A DNA stretch of 64,000 nucleotides from an uncultured virus (IMG/VR IMGVR_UViG_3300024306_000016) (IMGVR_UViG_3300024306_000016), one strand, 5' to 3'; positions 25,551 through 52,101 are shown, counted from the stretch's first letter. Notes: generated by a model not told the origin, from the letters alone. Made by a program: numbers and translations.

Positions 25551-25560
25551 GATTCGCTCC

Positions 25561-37020: not shown

Positions 37021-37132
37021 CTAGGCCCCGCTGCTAAGGATACTATATTTTGGACTTGACAGACCTTGTGTGATCACATATAATATACACATGCGCAAGA
37101 AACGTTTGCTTAGCCAAAGTAGAGGAGAACCC

Positions 37133-37432: not shown

Positions 37433-37565
37433 ACAGCAGCTACAGCAGCAGAGTTTTCCGGGGGGCCTATAGCTCAGACGGTTAGAGCAGTGGACTCATA
37501 ATCCATTGGTCCTTGGTTCGAATCCAAGTGGGCCCACCATCACAACAACAGCAGCTACAGCAGCA
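37432..37565 (+). repeat. 19 bp direct repeat flanking the tRNA
   Basis: AACAGCAGCTACAGCAGCA at 37432-37450 and 37547-37565. Confidence 0.85.
37463..37539 (+). tRNA. tRNA with CAT anticodon, most likely tRNA-Ile2 (lysidine, reads AUA)
   Basis: Acceptor GGGCCTA/TGGGCCC, D arm GCTC/GAGC, anticodon loop CTCATAA, TTCGAAT T loop, encoded CCA; lacks initiator features. Confidence 0.9.
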
Positions 37566-37568
37566 ACT

Positions 37569-37715
37569 ATGAAGAGATCTCCTAATCCCATGGACCCCCT
37601 AGACGATGTCAAACGTTGGTTCGCGGAGTTGTGGCCCGTGCAGCAGTGTGCGGTCATCGTGGGAGTTCTAGCTGCGCTCGCTGTACTAGTTGCCTGGGCC
37701 CTGCGAGGACCTTGA
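37569..37715 (+). CDS. small membrane protein
   Basis: Hydrophobic C-terminal half; start uncertain. Confidence 0.4.
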   Translation: MKRSPNPMDPLDDVKRWFAELWPVQQCAVIVGVLAALAVLVAWALRGP

Positions 37716-37803
37716 CCCCGAGGCTGCATGTGCTGCGAATTGACCGGGGTCATGGGTCGAGGTATGCGCAGCACGTGAGCTAGCTCCGGGGAATCTCCTA
37801 GAC

Positions 37804-37824
37804 TGTGGATAACCCTGTGGATAA
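37804..37824 (-). promoter_or_regulatory. two tandem consensus DnaA boxes
   Basis: TGTGGATAA (= TTATCCACA) at 37804-37812 and 37816-37824. Confidence 0.7.
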
Positions 37825-37905
37825 CTTTTTTTAAACGAGTTGGCGATTTTGGTTGACAGATTGGGCTAGGGGTGCTATACTATATGCATAATGAAGGAGC
37901 GAGCA

Positions 37906-38226
37906 ATGCGGGCCAAACGTACAGACCGGAATCACATCGTATACGAGCTGCAGGTACCTGCGGGCAACTACATCGGCGTTACAGCTAAGACTGAGACTAC
38001 TATTAATAAGAGTGTACGTGCTCGCGCTGCCAAGCACTTCTATCGTGCCCATTCAGAGAACAAAGATTGGGCCCTGTGCTGCGCTCTGCGAGATGTCGCG
38101 AGCAAGGATGACATCACTATCATAGTACATGCTGTGATCCGAGGCAAAGCTGCGGCACATAAAGAAGAGGTACGCATCCGGCGCGAAATTAAGCCCACGC
38201 TCAACACAGATGTGCGCGGCGACTAA
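37906..38226 (+). CDS. GIY-YIG-like small protein
   Basis: HIVY...NYIGVT...R...H...E...LN; AGGAGCG leader. Confidence 0.55.
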   Translation: MRAKRTDRNHIVYELQVPAGNYIGVTAKTETTINKSVRARAAKHFYRAHSENKDWALCCALRDVASKDDITIIVHAVIRGKAAAHKEEVRIRREIKPTLNTDVRGD

Positions 38227-38288
38227 AAAACGGTTGACATTTTGGCTAGAGAGTGTATAATACACACATGTTTAACAAGGAGCGCGAT

Positions 38289-38591
38289 ATGCTAACACTT
38301 ACAGCACAGCACAACGAAGACGGCATGTTAACACGTGAATACGACTGCGACTTTACAGTTACTACAGCTGGTGACGGCTTGTGGGGCTGTGAAGCAGGCA
38401 GACAAGTGCGTGTGACTGCGATTAGTGTAACAGAAGAAGATGACTATAAGAGCATTTATGTTACACACAACAGCACGTGGGACATTTACACAGACACAGC
38501 GTTTGAAGATGCTATTAGCACAGCACTAGGCTACGAAGTGCGTTTTACAGAGCAAGGCATGCAAGAAGACGAGCTTGCTAGCATGGAATAA
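38289..38591 (+). CDS. hypothetical early protein
   Basis: Own promoter and AGGAGCG leader; IYTD..FE...FTEQGMQ. Confidence 0.7.
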   Translation: MLTLTAQHNEDGMLTREYDCDFTVTTAGDGLWGCEAGRQVRVTAISVTEEDDYKSIYVTHNSTWDIYTDTAFEDAISTALGYEVRFTEQGMQEDELASME

Positions 38592-38665
38592 GCTAACAGC
38601 AGCAGAGGGGTTGACAAGGTGCAGCTCCTCTGCTATAATACACACTTAACACACAGGAGCGAACT

Positions 38666-39103
38666 ATGGGTACACGTTGTCTTACTTTTGTCTACGATGG
38701 CGACATTACTGAGGGTGCCATCATCAATCTCTATCGCCAGTACGACGGCTACCCCAGCGGGCACGGTGCTGAGCTAGCACGTTTCCTCACACAGGGTACA
38801 CTAGTCAACGGCCTACGTGGTGAAGATCGTGTGGTGTTCAACGGTATGGGCTGTTTGGCTGCGCAACTGGTCGCACACTTCAAAGATGGCCCCGGGCAGT
38901 TCTATCTCTACCCCGTGACTGCTGCAGACTGCGGCCAGGACTATGAGTATCACGTCTACGAGCGCGATAACATCATACACGTACAGGTCCGCGATCGTGG
39001 CTGCAACATGTTTGGGCTCACCATGAGCGAGACCAATGCTGCGTTGTTCGATGGGCCCATTGGTCGCTTCTACGAGTACTGCGAGGATAGGCAAGCAGCA
39101 TAA
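38666..39103 (+). CDS. conserved phage hypothetical early protein
   Basis: MGTR...LYRQYDGYPSGHG..LA.FL. Confidence 0.75.
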   Translation: MGTRCLTFVYDGDITEGAIINLYRQYDGYPSGHGAELARFLTQGTLVNGLRGEDRVVFNGMGCLAAQLVAHFKDGPGQFYLYPVTAADCGQDYEYHVYERDNIIHVQVRDRGCNMFGLTMSETNAALFDGPIGRFYEYCEDRQAA

Positions 39104-39127
39104 CCCTTTGGACTCTAAGGGTTTTTT
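39102..39127 (+). terminator. intrinsic terminator
   Basis: AACCCTT-N8-AAGGGTT-TTTT. Confidence 0.55.
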
Positions 39128-39194
39128 CTGGGGTTGACAGGGTACCCAAAACCCTGTATAATACAGACTTGTTTAACACACACAGGAGCGCAAA

Positions 39195-39548
39195 ATGGAA
39201 GCAACGCAACGCGAGTATTTCGTACGTCGTCTCAACGAGATCGCACGTGAAAAGGTGCAGGCTAAAGCAGTAGAACTGTTTGGGCCCACAGGCCGTCCTC
39301 AGCAACCCACGTGGGGCATGGTCTTTGAAGGCATCCGTTCCGGAGAGATTACCCTTAAAGAAGACAAGGTGGACTACACGGGTCCTTACCTTAACCCCAG
39401 CGATGTAGTGTGGCCTGCTATGGAAGCCAAAAAGGCAGAGCTGGAAGACTACCGCAAGACTGTAGAGCGCGAGCGTCAGAGTGCCGAAGATCGTGCTATG
39501 CTAGACGCAGACGCACAGAAAGCCCTTGATGCTTTCCAGGGTATTTAA
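39195..39548 (+). CDS. hypothetical early protein
   Basis: Own promoter and AGGAGCG leader. Confidence 0.7.
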   Translation: MEATQREYFVRRLNEIAREKVQAKAVELFGPTGRPQQPTWGMVFEGIRSGEITLKEDKVDYTGPYLNPSDVVWPAMEAKKAELEDYRKTVERERQSAEDRAMLDADAQKALDAFQGI

Positions 39549-39616
39549 CAAATAGGTTGACAGGGCCTTCGGGCCCTGTTATAATACGATTTTAAACAAC
39601 ATAGGAGCGAAGACTT

Positions 39617-40687
39617 ATGCCAGCAATCATCGAGATGCGCGAAGGTACCTATAAGATCCGTGGCGCTGAAGTGTCCATGGCGGGTAACCGTTTCGAGCTC
39701 GTGGAACAATACAAAGAAGGCGCCAATGGCGGTTATGTTACTGTTGCGGGTGGCTCAGTATACCCAAAGAATGCTGGTATTCCAGATCGTTCAATCCGCA
39801 TCCGTTGTGCATCAGCACAAAGCTACGTGGTAGTCTCTGGGGCAGTGCCTGCTACGCCCGCAGGTGACAAGAGCCTAGAGCAGATCAAGGTTTCGGATGA
39901 AGTAGTCGCACACGAGACTGATGAGCAGATCGTAGAGCGACTGCGTGGCCGCTTCCAAGTACTCAAGGACATGACCAAAGCAGTCAAAGAGGGCACCGTG
40001 CGAGCTATGATCGTCACTGGCCCTCCAGGTGTGGGCAAGAGCTTTGGTGTCGAAGAAGTACTGTCGCGAGACGATCTCTTTGATACCCTGGGCAATCGCA
40101 AGCCCAAATACGAGATCGTCAAGGGTGCTATGAGTGCCGTGGGTCTGTACAGCAAGCTCTATCACTACAGCGAAAAAGGCAACGTTATCGTGTTCGATGA
40201 CTGCGACTCTGTGCTGTTAGATGATCTTAGCCTTAACATCTTGAAGGCTGCTCTGGATAGCTCTAAGAAGCGTACTATCTCGTGGAACACTGACAGCCGT
40301 ATCCTGCGCTCTGAGGGAGTGCCGGACAAGTTTGAGTTCAAGGCAGGTGCTATCTTTATCACTAACATCAAGTTTGAGAATGTGCGTTCTAAGAAACTGC
40401 AGGATCACTTGGCGGCTTTGGAGTCACGCTGTCACTACATCGATCTCCAAATGGATACAGATCGTGAAAAGGTGCTTCGTATCAAGCAGATCGTCACTGA
40501 CGGCATGTTGGATACCTATGAGTTCGAGGATGTACAACGCGATGAAGTCGTAGACTACATCATCGAGAATCGCGGCAAGATGCGTGAGCTGAGCCTGCGT
40601 ACGGTGCTCAAAGTCGCAGACCTGCGCAAGAGCTTTCCTACTAACTGGCAGAGCATGGCTGAAGTCACTGTCATGAAGCGAGGTTAA
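39617..40687 (+). CDS. AAA+ ATPase
   Basis: Walker A GPPGVGKS, Walker B VIVFDDCD, IFITN, ALESR. Confidence 0.85.
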   Translation: MPAIIEMREGTYKIRGAEVSMAGNRFELVEQYKEGANGGYVTVAGGSVYPKNAGIPDRSIRIRCASAQSYVVVSGAVPATPAGDKSLEQIKVSDEVVAHETDEQIVERLRGRFQVLKDMTKAVKEGTVRAMIVTGPPGVGKSFGVEEVLSRDDLFDTLGNRKPKYEIVKGAMSAVGLYSKLYHYSEKGNVIVFDDCDSVLLDDLSLNILKAALDSSKKRTISWNTDSRILRSEGVPDKFEFKAGAIFITNIKFENVRSKKLQDHLAALESRCHYIDLQMDTDREKVLRIKQIVTDGMLDTYEFEDVQRDEVVDYIIENRGKMRELSLRTVLKVADLRKSFPTNWQSMAEVTVMKRG

Positions 40688-40688
40688 C

Positions 40689-40928
40689 ATGGAATGGACA
40701 CCCAAAACATGTCAATGGATTGGGCCCGACAAGGACCCAGTCCGTGACACAGATCTGTTCACTTGCCTGAGTGCCGTGATGCCAGGCAAGAGCTACTGCG
40801 CAGAGCACTACTCAAGGGTCTACATGGGTGGTACAGCTCTGCGTCGCAAGCGCCAGAACAAGAAGGAGCTCGAAGCTGAGCTGGCTAAAATAATGTGTAA
40901 GGATGAAGATCATGAACACTCTGTTTAA
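40689..40928 (+). CDS. GcrA C-terminal-like Zn-binding protein
   Basis: TCQWIG...C....PGKSYCAEH...VY. Confidence 0.55.
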   Translation: MEWTPKTCQWIGPDKDPVRDTDLFTCLSAVMPGKSYCAEHYSRVYMGGTALRRKRQNKKELEAELAKIMCKDEDHEHSV

Positions 40929-41106
40929 ACTCGTAGGGCTTCTAGCTCTGATTATATTCTTTATCGCGATTGGTCCACTGGCCGTTATTTGGGCGTGGAA
41001 CACGCTGTTTGGTGCTACGCATGAGATCCCGTTCACCTTTTGGACGTGGTTGGCCGCTGCTATTTTGATGGCAGTGCCCCAGGTGCGTGTTAAAACGGCA
41101 AAATAA
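40912..41106 (+). CDS. membrane protein
   Basis: Two TM segments. Confidence 0.6.
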   Translation: MNTLFKLVGLLALIIFFIAIGPLAVIWAWNTLFGATHEIPFTFWTWLAAAILMAVPQVRVKTAK

Positions 41107-41193
41107 GCCATTGACCTTTGCGGTAAGGTTGTTGTAATATAAAGGTACGCTGTTGAACTACAGCTATATTAACTTTAAAGGAAAAGGCAAACT

Positions 41194-41466
41194 ATGAAGT
41201 TCATCAACAAAGATACGAAGACCTACAAGGTTTTCAATGCACTCTACAATGGTGCTGCTCTAACCCAAAGCCAAGCTGAGAAGCGTTTTGGCGTGGGTAA
41301 CCTGGCTGCAGAAGCAAGCCGTATTCGTCAGCATGGTTATGCTGTTTACGCTAACAGCCGTACAGCTGGTAATGGCGTGACTGTTACCGAATACGTCATG
41401 GGCAAGCCAAGCCGTGAGATCGTTGCTCTTGGCTACAAGGCTAAGGCTCTAGGCATTACGCTCTAA
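41194..41466 (+). CDS. winged-helix DNA-binding protein
   Basis: LTQSQAEKRFGVGNLAAEASRIRQHGY HTH pattern; biased codons; leader AAAGGAAAAGGCA. Confidence 0.65.
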   Translation: MKFINKDTKTYKVFNALYNGAALTQSQAEKRFGVGNLAAEASRIRQHGYAVYANSRTAGNGVTVTEYVMGKPSREIVALGYKAKALGITL

Positions 41467-41477
41467 GAGCTTATCGG

Positions 41478-41546
41478 TTCAAAATCCAAGCCGATTCGCT
41501 CCCGGGGCGGGTTTTGGGAAGGGTCCTTTAGGGGCCCTTTCTTTTT
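41478..41546 (+). ncRNA. candidate 3'-UTR antisense RNA (anti-GGAGCGAAUC loop) with terminator, copy 1
   Basis: TCAAAATCC/GGGTTTTGG stem carrying CCG-ATTCGCTCC-CGG (41491-41505), then AAGGGTCC/GGGCCCTT hairpin and U tract. Confidence 0.55.
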
Positions 41547-41677
41547 GGCCCTGTGTTGCATAAAAGCCACACCTCGCCGGCACTCCCGCCTGTTGCAAAA
41601 ATACAACAGTTTTTTTGGTTGACAGCCCTGAGTAAATACCGTATAATAGAGGCATAGTTAGGACATAGGAGCGAGCT

Positions 41678-42313
41678 ATGCAGTTTACAGCAGATCAAGT
41701 TTGGGGTGCCGCAGCCGCTGCCCAACGCATCAACGGTGAGTACCTCAAAGAGGACAAAGGCCGTTACACTGACGAAGGCTACGTAGTTGATAAACGAGCC
41801 AACAAAGCTATGGTCAAGCAATGGCTCCGCGAGGGCGATTTCAGCCAGATCACTGAGGCCGATTATGCTGCTGGCCGCAGCGCCCGGGATCACTTCAAAT
41901 CCTACACACTGTTGGCGCTCACAGGTAAGATGAACGATTTCCAAACCACGGCTATGAAGATCGCTGCTATGGAAGAGTTCACAGGTAAAAACATGTACGA
42001 GTTCGCTGTTATCAGCTGCCTACCCAGCGTGGCTGTGCGCGATCAGGCCCGTACGGAACTCAAGCGAGAGATCTATGCCTCTGAGCAGCTCAAGGCTGCT
42101 GTAGGTGATACCATCGTCGGGGAGATCACTGTGGTCAGCGCAAGGTATAACCCTAACTTCGACAAGTATCGCGTCAACGCCCGTATGGGTGAGAGCTTCG
42201 TGGACTTCTGGTTCGGCAAAGCCCTTGAGGGCAGTGTGCGGGTCAAGGCCAAGGTCAAGGCACTCCGTGGCGATAATACAACACAACTGAACTACGTCAA
42301 AATAGTTGGTTGA
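41678..42313 (+). CDS. hypothetical protein, possible C-terminal OB fold
   Basis: AAQRING.Y.K; C-terminal VKAKVK...TQLNYVK. Confidence 0.7.
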   Translation: MQFTADQVWGAAAAAQRINGEYLKEDKGRYTDEGYVVDKRANKAMVKQWLREGDFSQITEADYAAGRSARDHFKSYTLLALTGKMNDFQTTAMKIAAMEEFTGKNMYEFAVISCLPSVAVRDQARTELKREIYASEQLKAAVGDTIVGEITVVSARYNPNFDKYRVNARMGESFVDFWFGKALEGSVRVKAKVKALRGDNTTQLNYVKIVG

Positions 42314-42385
42314 CAAAGAGCTCACTTGGTGCTACAATAATGATACTGAGAGAGCGTTTTTAACCCTGAGAAAGAAAGGTCTAGT

Positions 42386-43468
42386 ATGTCAAAGCAAGAT
42401 ATCTCTATTCGCCAAGTTGGCCCTAAGGGTGCCAAGAAGGCAATCCGCAAGTCGCTGACTGTGCGTCGCCCTGTGTTCCTGTGGGGCCCTCCAGGCATTG
42501 GTAAGTCCGATGTCGTTAAGCAGATCGCTGATGAGCTCAACCGTGAGGTCATCGACGTCCGCCTAGCTCTTTGGGAGCCCACTGACATCAAGGGTATCCC
42601 CTATTACAATGCAGATGTAGGCAAGATGGTGTGGGCACCGCCCGCAGAACTGCCTGTGGATCCTGAGTCCACTGCTGTGATCTTCTTGGACGAGCTTAAC
42701 TCCGCTCCTCCTGCTGTTCAGGCCGCGGCCTATCAGTTGATCCTTAATCGCCGTGTTGGCACCTATGTCCTGCCCAAAGGCGTTGACGTAGTCGCCGCTG
42801 GTAACCGTGAAGGTGACCGTGGTGTTACCTACCGTATGCCTGCTCCGTTGGCTAACCGCTTCGTCCACTTGGAGATGAAGGTAGACTTCGATGACTTCCA
42901 AGACTGGGCTACGCTCAACAAAGTCCACCCTGATGTGGTAGGTTATGTGGGCTTTGCCAAGCAGGACCTCTACGACTTCGATCCTAAGAGCCCTAGCAAG
43001 AGCTTCGCAACTCCGCGTTCTTGGGTGTTCGTGAGCGATCTGCTCAAGGACGATGACACTGATCAAGATACCCTGCACACTCTGGTCGCAGGTGCTATTG
43101 GTGACGGCCTTAGCATGAAGTTTATGGCTCACCGTAAGATCGCAGGCAAGATGCCTAAGGCTGGTGACATCCTCGACGGCAAGGTCAAGGACCTCCAGAT
43201 CAAGGAAGTGTCAGCGATGTATTCTTTGACCGTTAGCCTCTGCTACGAGCTCAAGGATCGTGCAGACAAGAAGGTCAAGAACTGGGACGAGGGTGCCGAT
43301 AACTTCTTCCGCTACATGATGGATAACTTCCCTACTGAGCTGGTAGTTATGGGTGCTAAGACCGCGCTCACCAACTATGACTTGCCTTTGGATGCTTCGA
43401 AGATGAAGAGCTTCGATGAGTTCCATAAGCGTTTTGGCAAGTATGTTTTGAGCGCCATGGAGAACTAG
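42386..43468 (+). CDS. MoxR-like AAA+ ATPase
   Basis: WGPPGIGKS, IFLDELN, AAGN, PLANRF, TPRSW. Confidence 0.9.
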   Translation: MSKQDISIRQVGPKGAKKAIRKSLTVRRPVFLWGPPGIGKSDVVKQIADELNREVIDVRLALWEPTDIKGIPYYNADVGKMVWAPPAELPVDPESTAVIFLDELNSAPPAVQAAAYQLILNRRVGTYVLPKGVDVVAAGNREGDRGVTYRMPAPLANRFVHLEMKVDFDDFQDWATLNKVHPDVVGYVGFAKQDLYDFDPKSPSKSFATPRSWVFVSDLLKDDDTDQDTLHTLVAGAIGDGLSMKFMAHRKIAGKMPKAGDILDGKVKDLQIKEVSAMYSLTVSLCYELKDRADKKVKNWDEGADNFFRYMMDNFPTELVVMGAKTALTNYDLPLDASKMKSFDEFHKRFGKYVLSAMEN

Positions 43469-43485
43469 ACCTCTCCAGCGCCAAA

Positions 43486-43522
43486 GGGCGGGGACTTCTC
43501 AGGGTCGCCCGCCCACCTTTTT
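43486..43522 (+). terminator. probable intrinsic terminator
   Basis: GGGCGGG...CCCGCCC followed by a T run. Confidence 0.55.
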
Positions 43523-43580
43523 CGGTTGACAAATAAATAAACAGAGCATATAATAGAAGCATACTAAGAAGGAGCGTGTT

Positions 43581-44783
43581 ATGGACCCGATCGTAGAGAA
43601 ACTGACAACTGCCCGAGTAGGACTGCTACTCAAGGAGCCGTTCTTCGGCAACATGGCTACTCGTATGCGTCTGCTCGATGCCAGCGACTGGTGCCCGACT
43701 GCGGCAACTAACGGTCGTGACTTCATGTATAACAAGAAGTTCATCGAGAAACTTTCTATCAAGAAACTAGAGTTCCTGTTTGCACATGAGATCTGCCACT
43801 GCATCTTTGACCACTTTGGTCGTGTTGGTAGCCGCGATCGTCAACTGTCTAACATCGCACAGGACTTCGCTGTTAATCAGATCCTTATCGACGAGCGTAT
43901 CGGCGAGAAGATCACTGAGGTTAAGATCTGCTACGATCCAAAGTATCGTGGTATGGCCTGGGAAGAGATCTACGATGATCTGTATGCCAAGGCAGAGAAG
44001 ATTCCTATGGACCAGCTCTTGAAGCAACTTGGTGACCTTCTCGACGAGCACATCAAGGAAGGCGATGGCGGCGGCAAGGACGGCAAGGAAGATCAAAAGG
44101 ATGGTCGCCCTAGCATCTCCAAAGAGGATGCACAACGCATCAAAGACGAGATCAAAGAGGCCATGATCCAGAGTGCCGCGGCCGCTGGTGCAGGTAAGAC
44201 TCCTGCAGGTATCATGCGTATGATCAAGGACATGACTGAGCCTAAGATCAGCTGGCGTGAGTTGGTGCGTCAAGAGATCCAAAGCATCATCCGCAACGAC
44301 TACTCCTTCACCCGCCCTAACCGCAAGAGTATGCACTCAGGTGCGGTGCTTCCAGGCATGAAGGAAGCCACTACTATCGACATCGCTATCTCTATGGATA
44401 TGTCAGGCAGTATTGGGCACGAGGATGCAACTGTATTCTTGAGCGAGATCAAGGGTATCATGGATCAGTATGAGGACTTCAGCATCAACCTGTGGTGCTT
44501 TGACACAGAGATCTATAACCACAAGACTATCACTCACGACAACGTCGAAGACTTGGTAGACTACGAGCCTCAGGGCGGTGGTGGAACTATGTTCGAAGCC
44601 AACTGGGAGTTCATGCGTGAGCAGAACATCCAGCCCAAGAAGTTTATCATGTTTACGGACGGTTACCCCTGCGGTAGTTGGGGTGAGGAAGACTACTGCG
44701 ATACTATCTTTATCGTTAAAGGAAACACACAGGCTGAGTCACCCTTTGGCCAGACTGTGATCTACGAGAAAGAGGTAGCCTGA
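43581..44783 (+). CDS. DUF2201-type metallopeptidase plus VWA-like protein
   Basis: TAATNG, HEICH (HExxH), DMSGS (MIDAS), GGGGT, FTDGY. Confidence 0.85.
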   Translation: MDPIVEKLTTARVGLLLKEPFFGNMATRMRLLDASDWCPTAATNGRDFMYNKKFIEKLSIKKLEFLFAHEICHCIFDHFGRVGSRDRQLSNIAQDFAVNQILIDERIGEKITEVKICYDPKYRGMAWEEIYDDLYAKAEKIPMDQLLKQLGDLLDEHIKEGDGGGKDGKEDQKDGRPSISKEDAQRIKDEIKEAMIQSAAAAGAGKTPAGIMRMIKDMTEPKISWRELVRQEIQSIIRNDYSFTRPNRKSMHSGAVLPGMKEATTIDIAISMDMSGSIGHEDATVFLSEIKGIMDQYEDFSINLWCFDTEIYNHKTITHDNVEDLVDYEPQGGGGTMFEANWEFMREQNIQPKKFIMFTDGYPCGSWGEEDYCDTIFIVKGNTQAESPFGQTVIYEKEVA

Positions 44784-44922
44784 TTTGGGAGTGCCAGGGG
44801 CTGTGGCTAAAATGCCACAGTACCCTAGGCCCCGCTGCTACACGTATGCGTGTAAGTGGTCTTGACAGATTGATAGATTGATCGTATAATATAGATACTG
44901 ACACACAGAAAGGAGCACCAAG

Positions 44923-45051
44923 ATGTTGAAATATGTCGTGGTTTTTGTAGCTGGTATAGTGTTCGGGCAAGTCGGATTCTCTGGCGTAGCTCGTATGCTA
45001 GATCATGGTGTTGATAAGGTTAAGACAACTTCCCAGGAGATGGCACGATGA
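44923..45051 (+). CDS. small protein (42 aa, not in track)
   Basis: MLKYVVVFVAGIVFGQVGFSGVARMLDHGVDKVKTTSQEMAR; promoter and AAGGAG upstream. Confidence 0.6.
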   Translation: MLKYVVVFVAGIVFGQVGFSGVARMLDHGVDKVKTTSQEMAR

Positions 45052-45251
45052 GCAGACTAGATCAGATCGCTTACGAGATCGAGCAACTGTTTATCGAAGG
45101 CCTTAGCCCTAGGATGATCAGTGAGACCCTTGGAGTGCCTGTGAGCATGGTCCATGACTGGCTCGCTAGCAACAGCCTCGATGATGAGGACGGCTGTGGT
45201 CCTGACCTAATAGAGGATGAGTTGAGTCCTTACTCAACTGTAAACAGTTAA
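45048..45251 (+). CDS. small HTH-like acidic protein
   Basis: GLSPRMISETLGVPVSMV. Confidence 0.55.
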   Translation: MSRLDQIAYEIEQLFIEGLSPRMISETLGVPVSMVHDWLASNSLDDEDGCGPDLIEDELSPYSTVNS

Positions 45252-45574
45252 TGAGTAAACTAGAGTTCTACGCAAGGCCCTTAGTGGCCTTCGACGCTTA
45301 CAATAAAGATCATAGGCGCTACTACGCAGAGTTCCTAGAATATGGCGGATGGGGCCGTTGCCCTGTCCGTTTCGTTTGTCCGGAAGATTATGGTATGGAC
45401 CTGCCTACTATGATCAAGCATAGGTTAATCCAGTACTACGTGGATCGTGAGTTTGGGGGCAGCAAACTATCACAGGAACGATCTAAGGCCCTAGCTGAGG
45501 ATGCTGACCGTATGTACAAGGAAGCGGGCAGGCTGCGCAAGGAGAGCCAGGCTCTTCTTAAACCCCGAAGGTAA
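45251..45574 (+). CDS. hypothetical protein
   Basis: RPLVAFD..NKDHR...WGRCPVRF. Confidence 0.7.
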   Translation: MSKLEFYARPLVAFDAYNKDHRRYYAEFLEYGGWGRCPVRFVCPEDYGMDLPTMIKHRLIQYYVDREFGGSKLSQERSKALAEDADRMYKEAGRLRKESQALLKPRR

Positions 45575-45694
45575 TTCTGCAGCGAATTGACCGGGGCTAG
45601 CTATGCGTGTACAGCATACCAGCCCTGCAAAAAGATTGGTTGACAGCTCGGGCTATAGCTGCTACATTACACGGGTAAACAAAGGAGCAAGCCC

Positions 45695-45937
45695 ATGTAT
45701 ATCCATCTCAAGTATACCGACAACAGCACGATCTACAGCATCGATGGTGAGCAGATCGAGTTCGTAGGGGGCCGTAGATCAGGGGACGTGGTCGTAAACG
45801 GCGATCATGTGTATCGTTACCAGCTGCGCGGTGAATACGTGCAGATCATCGATGAATACGACGATCTCGTAGAAGAGTTTGAGGACAGCGACGATTACTG
45901 GGAACGCTACGCTATGGAACTGGCGGGTGTGGCATAA
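45695..45937 (+). CDS. hypothetical early protein
   Basis: Own promoter and AAGGAG. Confidence 0.65.
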   Translation: MYIHLKYTDNSTIYSIDGEQIEFVGGRRSGDVVVNGDHVYRYQLRGEYVQIIDEYDDLVEEFEDSDDYWERYAMELAGVA

Positions 45938-46024
45938 AAGCCACACCTTTTTCTTTTCTGCAGATTTTGGTTGACAGTTTGGATTTTTGGTGCTATACTG
46001 TAGGCATACTAAGGAGAGCGAGTT

Positions 46025-46243
46025 ATGGGATACTTTGCAAATCTGGAACTGGAAGTGATGAGCATGGCCCACGATATGGGTGATGATTTTGGCCAGGACG
46101 AAGGCACGATCCTAACCATCAGCGAAACGCTAGGTGTATCCCCAGAAGAAGTCCAACGAATCCTAAGCAGCGATTCTGATGCGGATTACGACGGTCAACC
46201 CGACGAGATGCAGGAGTGGCACGATTTTGACCCTGACTGCTAA
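46025..46243 (+). CDS. small acidic HTH-like protein
   Basis: ISETLGVS (similar to ORF 45048); DGQPDEMQEWHDFDPDC tail. Confidence 0.65.
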   Translation: MGYFANLELEVMSMAHDMGDDFGQDEGTILTISETLGVSPEEVQRILSSDSDADYDGQPDEMQEWHDFDPDC

Positions 46244-46312
46244 AGGATTTTGGTTGACAGTTTGGACGTTTGGTGCTATACTAGCATCATAGTTAGATAA
46301 AAGGAGCGAAGA

Positions 46313-46570
46313 ATGTATCCAGAGATTTCAGAACAAGAGCGTGTGGTCCGTGCCCTCAAGGGCTGGCAGTTCCTGCGCTCAGAACACGGTTGCCTCTACG
46401 ATCGTGGCTCAGCAGACTCTTACTACGGCCGGGCTCGTCGGCCGCACTACGGTGGAGTTGGCGGCGAGTCAGGTCCCCGCGTTGAGGTTACGGATCCTGA
46501 GAGCGTGGCCGAATACATGGCTGGCTACGACTACAACGAACGCTACGGCGACAAAAAAGATTGGCGCTGA
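46313..46570 (+). CDS. conserved phage hypothetical protein
   Basis: HG..YDRGSADSYYGR...Y.AGY..NE..GDKKDW. Confidence 0.7.
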   Translation: MYPEISEQERVVRALKGWQFLRSEHGCLYDRGSADSYYGRARRPHYGGVGGESGPRVEVTDPESVAEYMAGYDYNERYGDKKDWR

Positions 46571-46633
46571 TCGGTTGACAGATTGGTATTTTGGTCGTAT
46601 AATACACATACTAAACAACTTAGGAGCGAATCA

Positions 46634-46831
46634 ATGACACAGTCATCAATGGAAAAATCCGGAATGTTCTGCTTTATCGTAGGACTGCTCGTAACGATCT
46701 TCGGTGTGGGCGGCATTGAGCAGAGCTTGGACAACTCCGGTCTTTTGCTGGGTGCCTTGGTTTCTACCGTGGGATTGATGATCATGGGCTGTGGCGCGAT
46801 GATGATCCAGAATGCAGAGGCCTACAAGTGA
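46634..46831 (+). CDS. membrane protein
   Basis: Two TM segments; AGGAGCGAATC leader. Confidence 0.6.
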   Translation: MTQSSMEKSGMFCFIVGLLVTIFGVGGIEQSLDNSGLLLGALVSTVGLMIMGCGAMMIQNAEAYK

Positions 46832-47034
46832 TCAAGCCCGAGGAACTGGACTATCTACGCCGCGCTCTGGATGCCCTGAGTGCCCCGGAAACGACCGCGA
46901 TGGCCCAGGCTAAGATCCTAAGGACCGTGAGCCAGATCGCCGATCGAGCCTCACGTGAGATCGAGCAGAGGTTCGTGGATCGGGTAGACCAGAACTTGGC
47001 CAATCAACATTTGGTTGACATTTTGAAACGCTGA
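46828..47034 (+). CDS. hypothetical protein
   Basis: GTGA-coupled ORF. Confidence 0.55.
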   Translation: MIKPEELDYLRRALDALSAPETTAMAQAKILRTVSQIADRASREIEQRFVDRVDQNLANQHLVDILKR

Positions 47035-47066
47035 GTGTATAATACACATACACTTAGGAGAGCGAT

Positions 47067-47252
47067 ATGAGAGATTTTAATGCAGTTGGTCATGATCTAC
47101 AAGCGATTGATGGACTCTTGGATCAGATCGAGGAACTGGCCATGGCCCTCCCGATCAGAGCCGGCCAGAAGAAGATCATCCAGAGTAAGATCTACGATCT
47201 ATACACAGAGATCGAAGACGGTGTTGAAGTGAGTTCAGTTGACTTTGACTGA
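47067..47252 (+). CDS. hypothetical early protein
   Basis: Own promoter and AGGAG. Confidence 0.6.
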   Translation: MRDFNAVGHDLQAIDGLLDQIEELAMALPIRAGQKKIIQSKIYDLYTEIEDGVEVSSVDFD

Positions 47253-47293
47253 TTTTGGATGTATAATACTAACTTAACTTAAGGAGCGAACCT

Positions 47294-47917
47294 ATGCCAA
47301 ACTGGTGCAACAACTATGTGGAAATCAGCCACAAGGACCCTGAGAAAATCCGTGCTCTCGCAGACGCATTCAATCGTGGAGAGTTTTGCCAGCATGTGAT
47401 TCCTACTCCTAAAGAGCTCACTGACACAGTGTCAGGCTTCATGGGCGAGGACAAGCGTGAGGCCCACGAAGCACAGCAGAAGTCCAACCTTGAGAAGTAT
47501 GGACATGCTGATTGGTATAGTTTCCAGACCAGCCGTTGGGGCACCAAGTGGGATGTGGGTGGCGATGACTGCAACCCTGCAGACGTCAGCGAGGATGGCA
47601 CTAGCATGAGCGTGGGCTTTGACAGTGCTTGGGCTCCTCCAGTGGGCGTTTACCAAGAACTGACCGAGCAGGGCTATGAAGTGCGAGCCATGTATTATGA
47701 GCCCGGCATGTGCTTCGCTGGCGTCTTTGAAGATGGCTGTGAAGACAACTATGACCTGAGCGAGATGTCCAGCAAACAGGTCCGCGATGAGATTCCTGAG
47801 GACTTGGATGAGTGCTTTGGCATCAGCGAGTGCATGGAAGAGTATGAGCGTGAGAATGAGGAAGAGCTCACACAGTGGATCCGTGAGGGTGCCGAAGCCA
47901 AGGAGCAGCCGCTGTGA
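47294..47917 (+). CDS. DUF1281/YubB ferredoxin-like domain protein
   Basis: MPNWCNN, WY......WGTKWD, FDSAWAPP, YYEPG..FAG. Confidence 0.8.
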   Translation: MPNWCNNYVEISHKDPEKIRALADAFNRGEFCQHVIPTPKELTDTVSGFMGEDKREAHEAQQKSNLEKYGHADWYSFQTSRWGTKWDVGGDDCNPADVSEDGTSMSVGFDSAWAPPVGVYQELTEQGYEVRAMYYEPGMCFAGVFEDGCEDNYDLSEMSSKQVRDEIPEDLDECFGISECMEEYERENEEELTQWIREGAEAKEQPL

Positions 47918-48222
47918 TGAATGTGGTCAAGTTGGACCGACGCTATGACGGGCATGAACGCTTTAGTCACAGGGTCGAGTTCACTGGCTACACAGGGCAA
48001 GGGCGTGTGATCCGTGTCAAGCAATGGGTCCGCGCCCGCAACTGGCTTTGGCAACAGTTTGGCGCCAGCGGAGAACTGTTCTGCGCTCGCCCAGAATACT
48101 TCGACGGCACACAGCCGGTTTGGGCTTGGGATGCAGAAAAGTCGAGTATATACCTAAACAAAGAAGCATACACGATGTTCATGCTACGCAAGGAGTTTTG
48201 GGAAAATGAAGCGAACCTTTGA
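47914..48222 (+). CDS. hypothetical protein
   Basis: Coupled ORF; KLDRRY.GH. Confidence 0.65.
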   Translation: MMNVVKLDRRYDGHERFSHRVEFTGYTGQGRVIRVKQWVRARNWLWQQFGASGELFCARPEYFDGTQPVWAWDAEKSSIYLNKEAYTMFMLRKEFWENEANL

Positions 48223-48406
48223 GTTCAAGTTTGAAGTCCTTTGTGCCGGAGAGGGCACAGCGGACGAGGCTAGGGTCGAGCAGATGATCGATCTGGCCAT
48301 GCAGGATCTTATCTATGACGACGAGTTCATCGCTGCTCTAGATGAGAAGGAAGCTGTGACTATTCGGGTCACCAAACTAGGAGATTTTGGTAAACCGAAT
48401 GGTTGA
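48206..48406 (+). CDS. hypothetical acidic protein
   Basis: Stop codon lies inside the next TTGACA. Confidence 0.6.
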   Translation: MKRTFEFKFEVLCAGEGTADEARVEQMIDLAMQDLIYDDEFIAALDEKEAVTIRVTKLGDFGKPNG

Positions 48407-48489
48407 CAGTATGGATTGGCTATGCTATATTAGTAGCATACCAAATAGGGTTGGTATACTTTTAAACACACACAGAAAGGCACATTAAA

Positions 48490-48795
48490 ATGGCAACTGA
48501 AAAGAAGTTCTCCGTAGCTGGCGTTTCGACGCTGAATGGTAAGACTAAGATCCGTTTCGCAAATGACTCGATGCGAATCAAGATCCTCGCAAAGAATGGT
48601 CACAAGGACGTTGACTTGATCAACCTTCCTAACGAGATGACCAAGGCTGAGATCGCTCAGCACCTGTACTCTACAGGTTATGGCACAGGTAAGCCTGCAG
48701 TGGAAGCTGCCATCGCTTACGTAGCCAAGAAGAACGGCGTCACCCTTGCTGCGCCTGCAGCTAAGGTCGAGACACGTGAAGCTGTTACTGCCTAA
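48490..48795 (+). CDS. conserved highly expressed phage protein
   Basis: FSVAGVS...K.RFAND..RIK.L.K.GH...L..LP..MTK; leader GAAAGGCA. Confidence 0.7.
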   Translation: MATEKKFSVAGVSTLNGKTKIRFANDSMRIKILAKNGHKDVDLINLPNEMTKAEIAQHLYSTGYGTGKPAVEAAIAYVAKKNGVTLAAPAAKVETREAVTA

Positions 48796-48857
48796 TCCGA
48801 TTCGCTCCCGGTAATAGGCACAGGGCGGGTGTACTCGATGCATCCGCCCTTTTTTTA
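48796..48857 (+). ncRNA. candidate 3'-UTR antisense RNA with terminator, copy 2
   Basis: CCGATTCGCTCCCGG (48797-48811) just after the stop, then AGGGCGGGTG/CATCCGCCCT hairpin and U tract. Confidence 0.55.
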
Positions 48858-48880
48858 TCTCTCTTAGGAGTAAATAATTC

Positions 48881-49273
48881 ATGGAACTGATCTTAATTCT
48901 ATTCACGGTATTCATCCTGGGATTCCTTCTGGGCCGCTTCGTAGAGCGTGTGTTCTTCCGTATGATCCTCGGCGAAGTGCTCAAGGATCTAGGCATCAAG
49001 CCCGCAGACCTTCGTAAATTACGCGAGAAATTAGAGCGGGAGATCACCGAGGACAGCGATGAGAGTGCCGAACCCGAGCTGATCCAGATCCGTATCGAGC
49101 AGCATCAAGGCCAGCTCTATGCCTATCGCAAGGACACAGAGCAGTTCGTAGGACAGAGCTCTACAGCTGAGGGACTACAGCGAGAGATCCGCAGCCGCTT
49201 CAAGGACACGGTTAAATTCATCGTTGATCGGGCCGAGGGTGGCGATCTACTGTTGCAAAAAAACAACACCTAA
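48881..49273 (+). CDS. membrane-anchored hypothetical protein
   Basis: N-terminal TM; AGGAG and TAAATA upstream. Confidence 0.65.
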   Translation: MELILILFTVFILGFLLGRFVERVFFRMILGEVLKDLGIKPADLRKLREKLEREITEDSDESAEPELIQIRIEQHQGQLYAYRKDTEQFVGQSSTAEGLQREIRSRFKDTVKFIVDRAEGGDLLLQKNNT

Positions 49274-49335
49274 ATCGGTTGACCTTTTCGCAGTTTGGCA
49301 GTACAATACACATACTGACACACAAAGGAGCAACT

Positions 49336-49608
49336 ATGCGCACAGACATCCGTGATTTCATCCTCAGGGACGCCACACTCGAGGATACCTCTGAAATGAT
49401 CGATCTGATCAAACAGCGGCGCACCAAGCTGTCAAAGATGGCTACCATCAACCTCATGGCCGGGGACAAGATCTCATTCACCAGCAGCCGCACCGGACGT
49501 TTGATGGTGGGCACCGTGGAAAAGGTCGCGATCAAGAACTGTATCGTTAACACAGCCTTTGGTCGCTACAGGGTTCCCGCAAACATGCTGTCTAGGGTCG
49601 AGGACTGA
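49336..49608 (+). CDS. hypothetical protein, SH3-like C-terminus
   Basis: GDKISF...GTVEKV......V......YRVP..ML. Confidence 0.65.
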   Translation: MRTDIRDFILRDATLEDTSEMIDLIKQRRTKLSKMATINLMAGDKISFTSSRTGRLMVGTVEKVAIKNCIVNTAFGRYRVPANMLSRVED

Positions 49609-49865
49609 TGTCAGGTTGGATCGTCTACGAGGTCCGCTCGGGCCGTATGGAAAAGTACTACAAGCGAGCCAGCACGGCCCGTAGGATAGTCACACAGCAC
49701 AACACTCCACGTGAATACGATTGGGGTCAAGGCTACGGCACATACCGCTACGAACCTCGCGAGATTTGGGCCTGCTGCTCTTACAGGGACTACGAAGGAA
49801 TCTTGATGGGGCTGCGCGGGGATCAGTTCAAGATGTGGCAATTCTGCAACAGCCCGACTGGTTGA
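49608..49865 (+). CDS. hypothetical protein
   Basis: Coupled ORF; stop inside TTGACA. Confidence 0.6.
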   Translation: MSGWIVYEVRSGRMEKYYKRASTARRIVTQHNTPREYDWGQGYGTYRYEPREIWACCSYRDYEGILMGLRGDQFKMWQFCNSPTG

Positions 49866-49914
49866 CAGTTTGGGCGAACGGTAGTATACTACACACATAT
49901 TAACAAAGGAGCGA

Positions 49915-50091
49915 ATGATGATCAATCAAGATCTCAAAGTCATAGCAGGCATACAGGAACGCTTGGGTCAGCTGCCCGTGCTGGAAACCCTGATCTACAT
50001 CGAGAACAACACTGAAGAGTTCACCATCTCAGAGCTGCGTAGTTTCCACAACGTGATGAGCCAGTTCCGCGCTCTGTTCGCGGCAGCATAA
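49915..50091 (+). CDS. hypothetical protein (58 aa, not in track)
   Basis: MMINQDLKVIAGIQERLGQLPVLETLIYIENNTEEFTISELRSFHNVMSQFRALFAAA; promoter and AGGAGCGA. Confidence 0.65.
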   Translation: MMINQDLKVIAGIQERLGQLPVLETLIYIENNTEEFTISELRSFHNVMSQFRALFAAA

Positions 50092-50218
50092 CGTGGTTGA
50101 CAGTTTGGGTCTACGAGCATATAATATGGACATGACAACAAGGACTACTCATGCAGACACTCTTAGCCGTTGCGATGATCTTTGCGCCCCCCGTGGTATT
50201 CGCAGCCACACTCTTGCT

Positions 50219-50434
50219 ATGATCGCTGCTGCGGCCAAACACTTGGCGCTCATATGTACCCTAGCGGGTGCTGCGGCAACTGCACTGGGACAGGATCCCT
50301 TGAACATCCTGCTGCTGAACCTAGGCAGCGTCCTGTACCTATACTGGAGTCTAACCGTACGCGATTGGAACTTGGTAGCTGTGAACGCGGGACTATTGAC
50401 TATCTATGCTATTGGAGCTATACTAAGACTATGA
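50219..50434 (+). CDS. membrane protein
   Basis: Three hydrophobic segments; preceded by a 23-codon hydrophobic ORF at 50151-50222. Confidence 0.55.
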   Translation: MIAAAAKHLALICTLAGAAATALGQDPLNILLLNLGSVLYLYWSLTVRDWNLVAVNAGLLTIYAIGAILRL

Positions 50435-50661
50435 TACAGATCACAGGACTCACACATAGGCAGCGCGAGATCATAGACATACTATGGAACTGCCAAAGCC
50501 TAGGACAAGCTGAAGCTGTGCTGGCAGCACTGCCCTATAAGGACGGCTGCGATGGCCGTAGCCTGCTGCAGATCGCTGCGTGGGAATGCACAGAACAAGA
50601 ACAGGGGCTAGACACATATGCAGATGCTGCTAAGACTGCTATCCGTAACGCTAGCCGCTAG
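50431..50661 (+). CDS. hypothetical protein
   Basis: MIQITGLTHRQ...DILWN. Confidence 0.6.
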   Translation: MIQITGLTHRQREIIDILWNCQSLGQAEAVLAALPYKDGCDGRSLLQIAAWECTEQEQGLDTYADAAKTAIRNASR

Positions 50662-50830
50662 CTGTGCTGCGGGCTGCGCTGTTAGGGATCGTAGAGATGC
50701 GCCCTGGGACCCGAGACCGCCTTATCAGTTGACGGATCAGATCCCTGCTTGGTCGGGCGCAGCAGAAAGGATCTGTTCAGGGCACCTCAGAGACGACCAG
50801 AAGAGACCCGGCATGACGGATCGGTGTTGA
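50618..50830 (+). CDS. putative lipoprotein
   Basis: Hydrophobic N-terminus with AAGC lipobox-like motif. Confidence 0.45.
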   Translation: MQMLLRLLSVTLAASCAAGCAVRDRRDAPWDPRPPYQLTDQIPAWSGAAERICSGHLRDDQKRPGMTDRC

Positions 50831-50976
50831 GGTCTCGGTCGGTGAAGGTTCGGCCGATGGGGGTGGGGGGCTATAGTGCGTACAGTGTTGTATTTTTGCA
50901 ACAGGGGTAGCAAATCACCACCCTGAAAAGAAAAGTACTCCACCCAAATTTTTTGCGCGGCCAAAATTTTATCCCG

Positions 50977-51363
50977 CTAGGACCCTTTTCTACTCTGTTC
51001 TATATACTTGATAGCTCGCTGTAACCGTTCTACATCGTCTGCTAGATTTCCCAAGCCCATGTTGCATTTATGGCATAGCCAACCTCTAAATAGGCCTGTT
51101 TCGTGATCATGATCGCAGACCCAGTTTTTTCTACGCAGACTGTGACCCTGCATTTCATCATAGTTTCTTAGACAGATAGCACAGCGATGATCTTTCTCGG
51201 GCGGCTTTGCTGACCTTTTAATAGCTCTTAGAGTTCGACTCTGCTGTCTAGCGCATTCTCTGCATTCATAGCGTAGATACCCATGTCGACCGCCGTCTCT
51301 GCCAAAAGCCGATTCTGGCTTTTCCACTAGACACATCGCACAAGTTTTAGTTTGTTGTCGCAT
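50977..51363 (-). CDS. endonuclease VII-type nuclease
   Basis: CAIC...DHDHETG.FRGWLC..CN.GLG...D; sigma70-like TTGACA upstream. Confidence 0.85.
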   Translation of the reverse strand: MRQQTKTCAMCLVEKPESAFGRDGGRHGYLRYECRECARQQSRTLRAIKRSAKPPEKDHRCAICLRNYDEMQGHSLRRKNWVCDHDHETGLFRGWLCHKCNMGLGNLADDVERLQRAIKYIEQSRKGS

Positions 51364-51414
51364 AGTTATATGATACTATCTTATGGTCTAGGTTGTCAAC
51401 TCGATAAGTAACAG

Positions 51415-51501
51415 ATGCGCATAGACATCCATTTCCTAATATCTTATACACTGTGGCTGCTAGTGTTCCTAGTCATCATCGCGGTCATGATCCTGCAGTG
51501 A
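51415..51501 (+). CDS. tiny TM peptide (28 aa)
   Basis: MRIDIHFLISYTLWLLVFLVIIAVMILQ, 4 nt after TAAGTA. Confidence 0.35.
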   Translation: MRIDIHFLISYTLWLLVFLVIIAVMILQ

Positions 51502-51504
51502 TCT

Positions 51505-51684
51505 CTAGATCTGCCTTCCCCAGCTGACTCTTAGCCATAGTCTTTCATGCACATAATGTAACGCTGTCAGCACTATGTTGGCCCAGATCGCTCCTGACCA
51601 TCCTGCCCATATGGCTGTTACACAGGTAGCTATCACTCTCCATATCACAGCTCTAGCTATGGTTCTCTTGTGTGTTTCTGTCAT
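51505..51684 (-). CDS. DUF2061 family membrane protein (not in track)
   Basis: MTETHKRTIARAVIWR...HYVHERLWLRVSWG; GGAGG SD. Confidence 0.75.
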   Translation of the reverse strand: MTETHKRTIARAVIWRVIATCVTAIWAGWSGAIWANIVLTALHYVHERLWLRVSWGRQI

Positions 51685-51722
51685 TTTTTGCCTCCATTAG
51701 GTTATTTAAGCTATATACAATC

Positions 51723-51947
51723 ATGCCCTATAGAGAATATGCTGTCTACACTTCGGATCCCAGTCTAGAGCGTGCTCTACGCTTCGCAGAGAGGTATGGT
51801 CTACACTACGAAGTGCATCTAAATAGGACACGCATACTAGTGCCGCGCAACACCTTAGAAACACAGTTTTTGCTAGAGTGCGAGGGAGCAGTAGCCGTCA
51901 TTGAACGAGAAGAATATTATGGATATAGAGGAAATAAGAGGTCGTAA
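51723..51947 (+). CDS. hypothetical protein
   Basis: EVHLNRTR motif. Confidence 0.55.
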   Translation: MPYREYAVYTSDPSLERALRFAERYGLHYEVHLNRTRILVPRNTLETQFLLECEGAVAVIEREEYYGYRGNKRS

Positions 51948-52101
51948 GTACTACTACAGTAGGGAGGAAGATACTTGGTATCCCATGCCCGATAAGCTGG
52001 ACAACGATCTAAATGCATTCGCCATGTTCATGGCCAAGATTGGGGCGGTCTGTGTTGTATGCTGGCTAGCTATGGAATACTTTGGTCTTACTAGAAGCTA
52101 A
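51919..52101 (+). CDS. small membrane protein
   Basis: C-terminal TM. Confidence 0.5.
   Translation: MDIEEIRGRKYYYSREEDTWYPMPDKLDNDLNAFAMFMAKIGAVCVVCWLAMEYFGLTRS

Follow-up and report, generated by a model that had tools for sequence, protein, structure and literature searches.

The stretch of DNA analysed here (hereafter, the window) spans 64,000 nucleotides (nt) of an uncultured virus (IMG/VR IMGVR_UViG_3300024306_000016) and contains two copies of a 15-mer, CCGATTCGCTCCCGG, each located between a small gene and an intrinsic terminator. Covariation of its stem among homologues shows the element to be a conserved RNA hairpin, with the stem CCG/CGG and the loop AUUCGCUCC. On balance, we favor the view that both 15-mers are members of a conserved hairpin family in uncultured giant (~350 kb) freshwater phages, and that these hairpins would pair with tagged ribosome-binding sites (RBSs) and thereby lower translation.

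Both exact copies of the 15-mer are on the + strand (41491–41505 and 48797–48811). The number expected in the window was 0.04 at up to two mismatches, and two copies were obtained in none of 100 shuffles. Copy 1 starts 25 nt past the TAA of an open reading frame (ORF) encoding a 90-amino-acid winged helix-turn-helix (wHTH) protein (carrier gene 1, P0001; 41194–41466, +), and copy 2 starts 2 nt past the TAA of an ORF encoding a 101-amino-acid protein (carrier gene 2, P0002; 48490–48795, +). Downstream of each is a 12-bp intrinsic terminator stem followed by a U-run, so that both the identity of the copies and their placement between a small-gene stop and a strong terminator are as an earlier reading of the sequence alone (hereafter, the sequence-only reading) had described them. 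According to a terminator scan, terminator 1 (41516–41546, +) ends in UUUU, has a predicted fold z of −3.68 and is followed by two more terminator-like hairpins (41553–41574 and 41590–41615, +; repeat family D6), while terminator 2 (48822–48856, +) ends in seven U. A repeated exact 15-mer is by itself weak evidence, near chance level in 64 kb. Because several chance-like 15-nt repeats share the window (the direct or inverted pairs D10, I19, I20, I23 and I25), the case for the hairpin rests on its position and on its relatives. The 15-mer was also considered as the RBS of an antisense ORF and rejected, the minus-strand frames being TTG plus 7 codons for copy 1 and 3 codons for copy 2.

Hairpin 2 (48790–48819, +) has an outer stem formed by GCCUA (48790–48794) and UAGGC (48815–48819), an inner stem formed by CCG (48797–48799) and CGG (48809–48811), and the loop AUUCGCUCC at 48800–48808. 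This is also its minimum free energy (MFE) fold, with a z of −4.58. The consensus fold of hairpin 1 (41478–41518, +) comprises an outer stem (41478–41487 with 41509–41518), a 3×3 internal loop, an inner stem of CCG (41491–41493) and CGG (41503–41505) and the apical loop AUUCGCUCC at 41494–41502. Single-sequence folds were used for the relatives, as RNAalifold on a MAFFT alignment of the type-1 copies gave only three pairs, with indels misaligning the outer stem. In 28 of 34 distinct relatives the consensus architecture of hairpin 1 is the MFE fold, and the outer stem of ~10 bp varies in sequence. In one subclade (L012, L014, L015, L016 and L039), the 3' untranslated region (UTR) begins with UAAGGUGAAC, a Shine–Dalgarno (SD)-like stretch at the stop codon. 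This stretch is predicted to pair with the anti-SD loop and may be a built-in decoy or switch.

The complementary sequences are found in a block of small + strand genes at ~37–50.4 kb, almost every one of which has its own near-consensus sigma-70 promoter. The leaders of this early block carry an SD site extended to GGAGCGA(A): eight + strand leaders contain GGAGCGA (37896 to 49908), and five more contain GGAGCG or GGAGAGCGA. Read as reverse complements, the loop core UCGCUCC corresponds to GGAGCGA and the loop side GAUUCGCUCC to the leader tag. The longest matches are to GGAGCGAATC, found exactly at 46623 (+) and 25551–25560 (−), each time immediately 5' of an ATG. Within the early block, the leader GGAGCGAAUC (46623–46632, +; ATG at 46634; −13.7 kcal/mol) is complementary to GAUUCGCUCC at 10/10 positions. 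It is followed by GGAGCGAAU with 9 nt (49908–49916, +; −14.3 kcal/mol), by GGAGCGAA with 8 nt in four + strand leaders (38656–38663, 39604–39611, 46303–46310 and 47283–47290) and by GGAGCGA with 7 nt in two (37896–37902 and 41668–41674, +). The leader at 39604–39611 belongs to an AAA ATPase gene (39617–40687) that heads the transcription unit terminating at hairpin 1. Outside the early block, GGAGCGAAUC is also the leader of a minus-strand ORF at 24915–25550 (10/10 complementarity at 25551–25560, −), for which no sigma-70-like promoter was found. All of these 8- to 10-nt matches had been predicted by the sequence-only reading and proved real, but its + strand coordinates (38655, 39603, 46302, 46622, 47282 and 49907) were one position too low. 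In a set of 105 GGAG-containing sigma-70 leaders drawn from six genomes, the positions that follow GGAG are progressively less conserved (C 67%, G 63%, A 57%, A 52%) before the profile becomes flat. The loop mirrors this gradient, with UCGCUCC fixed and the 5' AU variable.

The early block (37056–50425, +) is also a dense promoter array, in which 11 TTGACA-16/17-TATAAT sites score 12/12, roughly one per small gene, and many of the promoters share an upstream TGG and a conserved spacer (repeat families D1–D3).

Conservation among relatives was assessed for three groups of homologues. For carrier gene 1, 80 loci were kept of 161 IMG/VR relatives, giving 52 distinct 3'UTR sequences, 37 of which contain the invariant 17-mer CCGATTCGCTCCCGGGG amid varying flanks. 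For carrier gene 2, the hairpin directly follows the stop in 23 of 24 loci. In its distant homologues, the stem becomes UCGG/CCGA, UUGG/CCAA, UCAG/CUGA or ACGG/CCGU; UCGCU stays invariant and UCGCUCC almost so. Among 19 homologous hairpins, two-sided changes were observed in three of the four stem pairs (eight cells); the resulting covariation score was reached by 0 of 500 shuffles, and slid controls scored lower. Around homologues of the AAA ATPase (the best 80 of 392 in IMG/VR, all at least 70% identical and spanning 70–100% identity), 60 hairpins were found in the 80 loci, all identical. Clade A alone therefore gives no power to test whether loop and tag covary, both being fixed. The nearest available virus record retains both 15-mer copies. 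The sequence-only reading had proposed conservation and joint change of loop and leader in related phages as its check, and the first of these is borne out by the carrier-1 and carrier-2 families alike. At one site (L090), the CUCC part of the hairpin is lost; the contig keeps tagged leaders and one other match in hairpin orientation.

The exact 15-mer occurs in at least 123 IMG/VR stretches, compared to 13 for the motif read backwards. We surveyed 77 distinct contexts in 80 fetched loci and found the element upstream of a same-strand T-run in 51. By class, 22 contexts have the type-1 form, 10 lie in a 3'UTR before a terminator and 19 are at the tip of an intrinsic terminator (GC-rich outer stem, RUAARU, hairpin, U-run). 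Another five are reverse-oriented, immediately before an ATG, and 21 are classified as other, including first copies of tandem pairs. About 11 GC-rich contexts among the latter were, by eye, taken as chance matches, a number close to the control count. Orientation of the element is strictly tied to transcription: it is antisense to the tag at 3' ends and sense at RBSs, which argues for an RNA rather than a DNA site. Phage genomes carry two to three hairpin copies each. The 353-kb genome G006 (98% complete) contains exactly two, 6.9 kb apart, together with nine sigma-70-driven GGAGCGA leaders, all at 310–327 kb on the same strand as the hairpins, and two late-type leaders with 13–14 nt of complementarity to the hairpin. 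Its GGAGCGA 7-mers total 26, approximately the base-composition expectation by our own arithmetic, and the non-random part is the placement of the tags and not their total count.

Loop and leader motif also change together between clades. A profile search with carrier 2 yielded relatives of 41–60% identity, the source of clades with other tags. In these distant clades, the leaders carry other tags, and a matching loop follows the gene homologous to the AAA ATPase of the window, within its 3'UTR, giving, beyond the window clade, the pairs GAGGGCAA with UUGCCCUC and AGCGAGGUA with UACCUCGCU. In clade B (five contigs), the tag is GAGGGCA(A), and a sigma-70-like promoter accompanies 31 of the 34 tagged leaders; one member, G020, has 17 tag-orientation matches compared to 0–1 for a control pattern. 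Four of the five contigs contain UGCCCUC or UUGCCCUC in a hairpin loop or tandem pair, the tandem copies being 70 nt apart with the second at the terminator tip, and the fifth has three copies of (C/A)GCCCUC. In clade C (one contig), 6 of 17 leaders carry the tag AGCGAGGUA, and UACCUCGCU occupies the loop of a hairpin right behind the ATPase stop, 5' of a strong terminator. The subclade G004/G005 has tandem UUCGCUCC hairpins at the same place in the AAA ATPase 3'UTR. Three further TGCCCTC matches in the clade contigs are in coding sequence and unstructured, and were counted as chance. We calculated that the reverse complement of a given 7-mer would fall within 60 nt of the AAA ATPase stop with a probability of ~0.004 per clade (own arithmetic). 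With a separate tag/loop pair in each of three clades, all at the same syntenic position, the joint change that the sequence-only reading had looked to is present, and selection on loop–leader pairing is well supported by these comparisons.

In relatives, the same 13–15 nt also occur in the opposite orientation, as RBSs of late-type genes with the form (C/U)CGGGAGCGAAUCG followed by ATG, an arrangement that the sequence-only reading had not anticipated. The genes concerned encode a CsgF-like secreted protein (Pfam CsgF, E = 4.2e-8) and a 93-amino-acid membrane protein, and their RBSs lie behind TAAATACT boxes, which we take to resemble T4 late promoters. The RBS of the CsgF-like gene is the full reverse complement of the hairpin. 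In the window, no such late-type gene was found on the minus strand behind either copy of the 15-mer. The CsgF-like protein, a relative of a curli secretion component with a signal-peptide-like N-terminus, was observed at 8781–9260 (−) of G002 (= L107), in G004 and in L281–L302.

Each hairpin closes an early transcription unit on its 3' side, either directly ahead of the intrinsic terminator or at the terminator's tip. Its 7–9 nt loop, held on a short stem, combines an anti-SD core (CUCC) with a clade-specific extension. The loop is the exact complement of a clade-specific tag that extends the SD of sigma-70-driven early genes, GGAGCGA(A) in the window clade, and in relatives it additionally matches 13–15 nt in the RBSs of a small number of late-type genes. 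Under the mechanism that we propose, pairing of the loop with these tagged RBSs would occur either in trans, from a stable terminator-proximal 3' fragment, or in cis on a polycistronic mRNA; it would compete with the 30S subunit, perhaps create an RNase site and lower translation of all the tagged genes together. The sequences show the hairpin structure, its conservation and strict orientation, its complementarity to the leaders and the joint variation of loop and tag; that pairing takes place in the cell, that its sign is repressive, its timing and its action in trans or in cis are what we infer from them.

Several observations weigh against this reading. First, the RBSs of P0001 and P0002 themselves lack the tag and are of the AAAGGCA type, as the sequence-only reading had noted. 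Second, carrier 2 has an early-type promoter (48403–48431), which weakens the picture of carriers accumulating later, and the hairpins arise from early transcripts themselves, so that a simple delayed switch is not obvious. Third, the CCG/CGG fold around the loop that had been proposed from the sequence holds for copy 2, with a probability of at least 0.99 that the loop is unpaired, but not for copy 1, where the predicted MFE in the window strain (−16.3 kcal/mol) is a strain-specific alternative that buries the loop; the consensus fold (10-bp outer stem, CCG/CGG, 9-nt loop) reaches −13.1 kcal/mol, 3.2 worse. Fourth, the loop variant ACUCGCUCC of G003 is uncompensated, with GGAGCGAA in four of five early-block leaders and GGAGCGAG in none of the five; only the 7-nt loop core seems to be constrained. 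Fifth, duplex energies discriminate poorly, because any CUCC-bearing loop binds GGAG sites: the real loop reaches −9 kcal/mol or lower at 13 of 112 start regions, and shuffled loops do so at 4.1 on average and 23 at maximum. Sixth, the RNA evidence consists of assembled metatranscriptome contigs from four runs, which possibly contain DNA. Finally, because the hairpins share operon transcripts with tagged RBSs, a 5'–3' interaction in cis has the same likelihood as action in trans.

In the metatranscriptomes, the P0001 bin is deepest in all four runs, a hint at most. One contig breaks off at the 3' edge of hairpin 1 (41505), where it is joined to adapter sequence, and another adapter-joined contig begins at 48459, in the carrier-2 leader. 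These edges, represented by one contig each, may be RNA ends.

Among the closest known systems is the icaR mRNA of Staphylococcus aureus, in which, as reported, a 3'UTR anti-SD sequence, UCCCCUG, pairs with the message's own 5'UTR, blocks initiation and creates an RNase III substrate (PMC3868564). icaR resembles the phage element in placing a C-rich anti-SD in the 3'UTR against an RBS, and here too hairpin and tagged RBSs are on the same transcripts. It differs in being a single bacterial mRNA with one site, whereas at least a dozen RBSs carry a private tag beyond the SD core here; the phage element is moreover a small hairpin loop at or in a terminator, present in two to three copies per genome, with untagged carrier RBSs. 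The tag is absent from the RBSs of P0001 and P0002 and present on the operon transcripts that end in the hairpins, including in the AAA ATPase leader.

A strictly cis, icaR-like arrangement, in which the AAA ATPase operon would be autoregulated with no diffusible regulator and no one-to-many control, is the strongest alternative, albeit one that we consider unlikely. Hairpins are found directly in the AAA ATPase 3'UTR in G004/G005 and in clades B and C, and the leader of this gene is tagged exactly in the window and in three of five clade-B loci, with near variants in G004 and the other two. Around copy 1, the AAA gene, two small ORFs and P0001 precede the hairpin without a convincing terminator between them, and around copy 2 every promoter from 45971 through 48403 leads to terminator 2. 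A single loop, however, can cover no more than one RBS at once, yet 8–17 leaders per genome retain the tag. The late-type genes, tens of kb away and some on the opposite strand, have 13–15 nt of complementarity that could be used only in trans, and tandem and triple copies suggest a dosage effect.

We regard as improbable that the element is a protein-binding RNA site, whether a nut/boxB-like antitermination signal or a 3'-end stability or processing signal, with the complementarity to leaders being secondary. Such a site would account for identical copies at two places between a small-gene stop and a terminator, and the nutR site of phage lambda is similarly sited. Recognition by a protein would likewise be compatible with a fixed loop carried by a covarying stem, type-1 copies keep even the stem invariant, and the contig that ends at 41505 in adapter is a weak hint of processing. 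What this explanation leaves unaccounted for is that, in three clades with three different sequences, the loop matches the leader tag exactly as its reverse complement. The lambda boxB has a 5-bp stem and a GNRA-like pentaloop, with boxA (CGCUCUUA) a few nt upstream; here, the stem is 3–4 bp and the loop 7–9 nt, the upstream flanks vary, and of boxA only CGCUC is present, inside the loop. Searches of the region 36000–52000 of the window and of 10 related loci gave no Rfam match at either hairpin, and only tRNA-Met reached its gathering score.

We likewise give little credence to the possibility of genuine pairing with an effect other than repression. Tagged mRNAs might be stabilized or activated, or late mRNAs might trigger decay of early mRNAs through the 3' hairpins; the late-type RBSs (C/U)CGGGAGCGAAUCG behind TAAATACT boxes in the CsgF-like and 93-amino-acid membrane-protein genes, and the length of the late duplex (13–15 bp), which exceeds early-leader pairing, would fit such a role. 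Masking of the SD is repressive in RNAIII, however. It is also reported to be repressive in icaR (PMC3868564), and we saw no sequence sign that the leaders need unmasking. Finally, an element without RNA function, be it a DNA-level site (perhaps for the neighbouring wHTH protein) or inverted leader copies spread by recombination, is very improbable: the same 15-mer does occur in both orientations among relatives, a DNA-binding protein gene adjoins copy 1 and the phage has many repeated promoter–leader cassettes, but orientation strictly follows context, stems covary in the manner of RNA, the site is found at terminator tips, and gene conversion across 7–10 nt would probably not preserve the match in three clades at a single syntenic position.

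Returning to the anti-RBS hairpin, we compared it to other RNA and protein systems that act on RBSs. RNAIII of S. aureus exposes C-rich anti-SD sequences in its loops, including that of the terminator hairpin, and represses several mRNAs through loop–RBS pairing. It is a stand-alone bacterial RNA that reads the generic SD, whereas the loop described here would read the SD plus a phage-specific extension and so spare host and untagged mRNAs. Another such RNA is the c4 antisense RNA of phages P1 and P7, represented in Rfam as RF01695 (PMC8198154). It is likewise encoded by the phage, and its loops pair around the RBSs of genes that share its operon; the complementary sequences differ in step between P1 and P7. 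It is a temperate-phage immunity element, located upstream of the single target icd/ant and processed from a leader; the present hairpins are at the 3' ends of early operons in giant, apparently lytic phages and face many RBSs. The RF01695 covariance model had no match in the window region 36000–52000 at E ≤ 1 or in the 10 related loci at E ≤ 0.1.

In phage T4, the endoribonuclease RegB inactivates early mRNAs as a class at GG*AGRAYARAA, which extends the GGAG SD (PMC3014915). The likeness lies in a class of early mRNAs marked by an extended GGAG site and the difference in the agent, a protein nuclease in T4 compared to what would here be an RNA loop. The GGAGCGAA leaders depart from the RegB consensus (GGAGRAYARAA), having C where a purine is required (PMC3014915). 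No member of the RegB family was detected among 78 window ORFs at E ≤ 1e-5. Features of base-pairing small RNAs are present, including a seed of 7–10 nt against target RBSs (eight + leaders and one − leader), covariation of seed and target, and a Rho-independent terminator. The sequence-only reading had known of no description of such an element, and full-text literature searches for phage 3'UTR or terminator-tip hairpins matching a shared early RBS tag, supplements aside, yielded none. The element would be a variant of anti-SD RNA control, and a new one.

More tentatively, and at a probability that we put somewhat below that of the anti-RBS hairpin as such, the early genes could share a barcode beyond the SD, read by a matching anti-barcode loop at the terminator tips of early operons. 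Such a system might switch ~10–20 mRNAs as a temporal class, plus a few fully matched late genes, while sparing host and untagged messages, with orthogonal co-evolving pairs in each clade. The loop would then be the phage's own imitation of the 16S anti-SD tail, with greater specificity. If the pairing operates in the manner proposed, a lytic phage would for the first time be seen to control an entire temporal class of genes through RNA, and a 7–9 nt RNA loop would do the job of the protein nuclease RegB in T4. The pairs GGAGCGAA/UUCGCUCC, GAGGGCAA/UUGCCCUC and AGCGAGGUA/UACCUCGCU would moreover be ready-made orthogonal translation switches, and co-evolved tag/loop pairs make the idea testable in Escherichia coli without the uncultured host.

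Turning to the carrier genes, P0001 matches the Pfam family HTH_39 (E = 8.3e-6; 26 bits compared to a cut-off of 21.3), and among cultured phages only Pelagibacter phage HTVC008M gave a relative (36% identity). P0002 has no Pfam or PHROG family and no match in phage records, and a protein atlas gave nothing usable for it. Its AlphaFold2 model (predicted local distance difference test score, 82) had no Foldseek match in the PDB at E ≤ 0.001. The codon bias that the sequence-only reading ascribed to both carriers is present but only moderate, their effective numbers of codons ranking 10 and 11 among 80 ORFs. A second clade of the wHTH gene of P0001 (L021, L033, L045, L047, L061, L065, L068, L070 and L073) has no hairpin behind the stop and carries there a perfect palindrome, GG(A/T)TAGGCCTA(T/A)CC, with covarying arms. 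In this second clade, the 3-kb loci hold too few early leaders for tags to be compared, and two members (G004 and G005) have their hairpins elsewhere.

Megablast of positions 40000–50000 against phage records gave no match, and a distant search of cultured phages returned only the AAA ATPase segment of PA5oct-like and other jumbo phages. In the five PA5oct-like and jumbo phage genomes searched, CGATTCGCTCCCG was absent at up to one mismatch.

Other repeats were observed near the hairpins and elsewhere in the window. The box CCGGCACTCC (41575–41590) lies between the terminators downstream of hairpin 1 and the early promoter that comes next, has CUCC at its end, as does the loop, and is conserved in many relatives (for example, L010, L018, L027 and L046) despite varying flanks. 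A perfect 20-nt inverted repeat, CCTGTTGCAAAAATACAACA (41589–41608 and 50886–50905), represents one terminator hairpin in both orientations, 9.3 kb apart. The 22-mer TAGGCCCCGCTGCTAAGGATAC occurs at 36782–36803, 37022–37043 and 44826–44847 (twice at 100% and once at 77%), and the similar TAGGCCCCGCTGCTAG was found behind a terminator in relative L088. Two copies of a 35-nt repeat, ACCCCGA...GCGAATTGACCGGGG (37715–37749 and 45562–45596), are 80% alike; with its inverted ends (ACCCCG and a CGGGGT-like sequence), this repeat may form a hairpin.

With respect to gene content, the window phage encodes a ribonucleotide reductase, ClpP, a DnaB-like helicase, a DNA ligase and many auxiliary metabolic genes. 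The early block includes a tRNA-Met (CAT) gene (37463–37539, +; Rfam 73 bits, ARAGORN) and a gene pair at 42386–44783 encoding a MoxR-like AAA ATPase and a DUF2201 protein (VWA-like plus putative metallopeptidase). Auxiliary genes in five regions (4337–8679, 5434–6346, 18619–21118, 28564–30693 and 57149–58612) encode, in addition to the ribonucleotide reductase and ClpP, a NifU-like protein, Fe/Mn superoxide dismutase, fatty acid desaturase, isocitrate lyase, a class I/II aminotransferase and a carbamoyltransferase.

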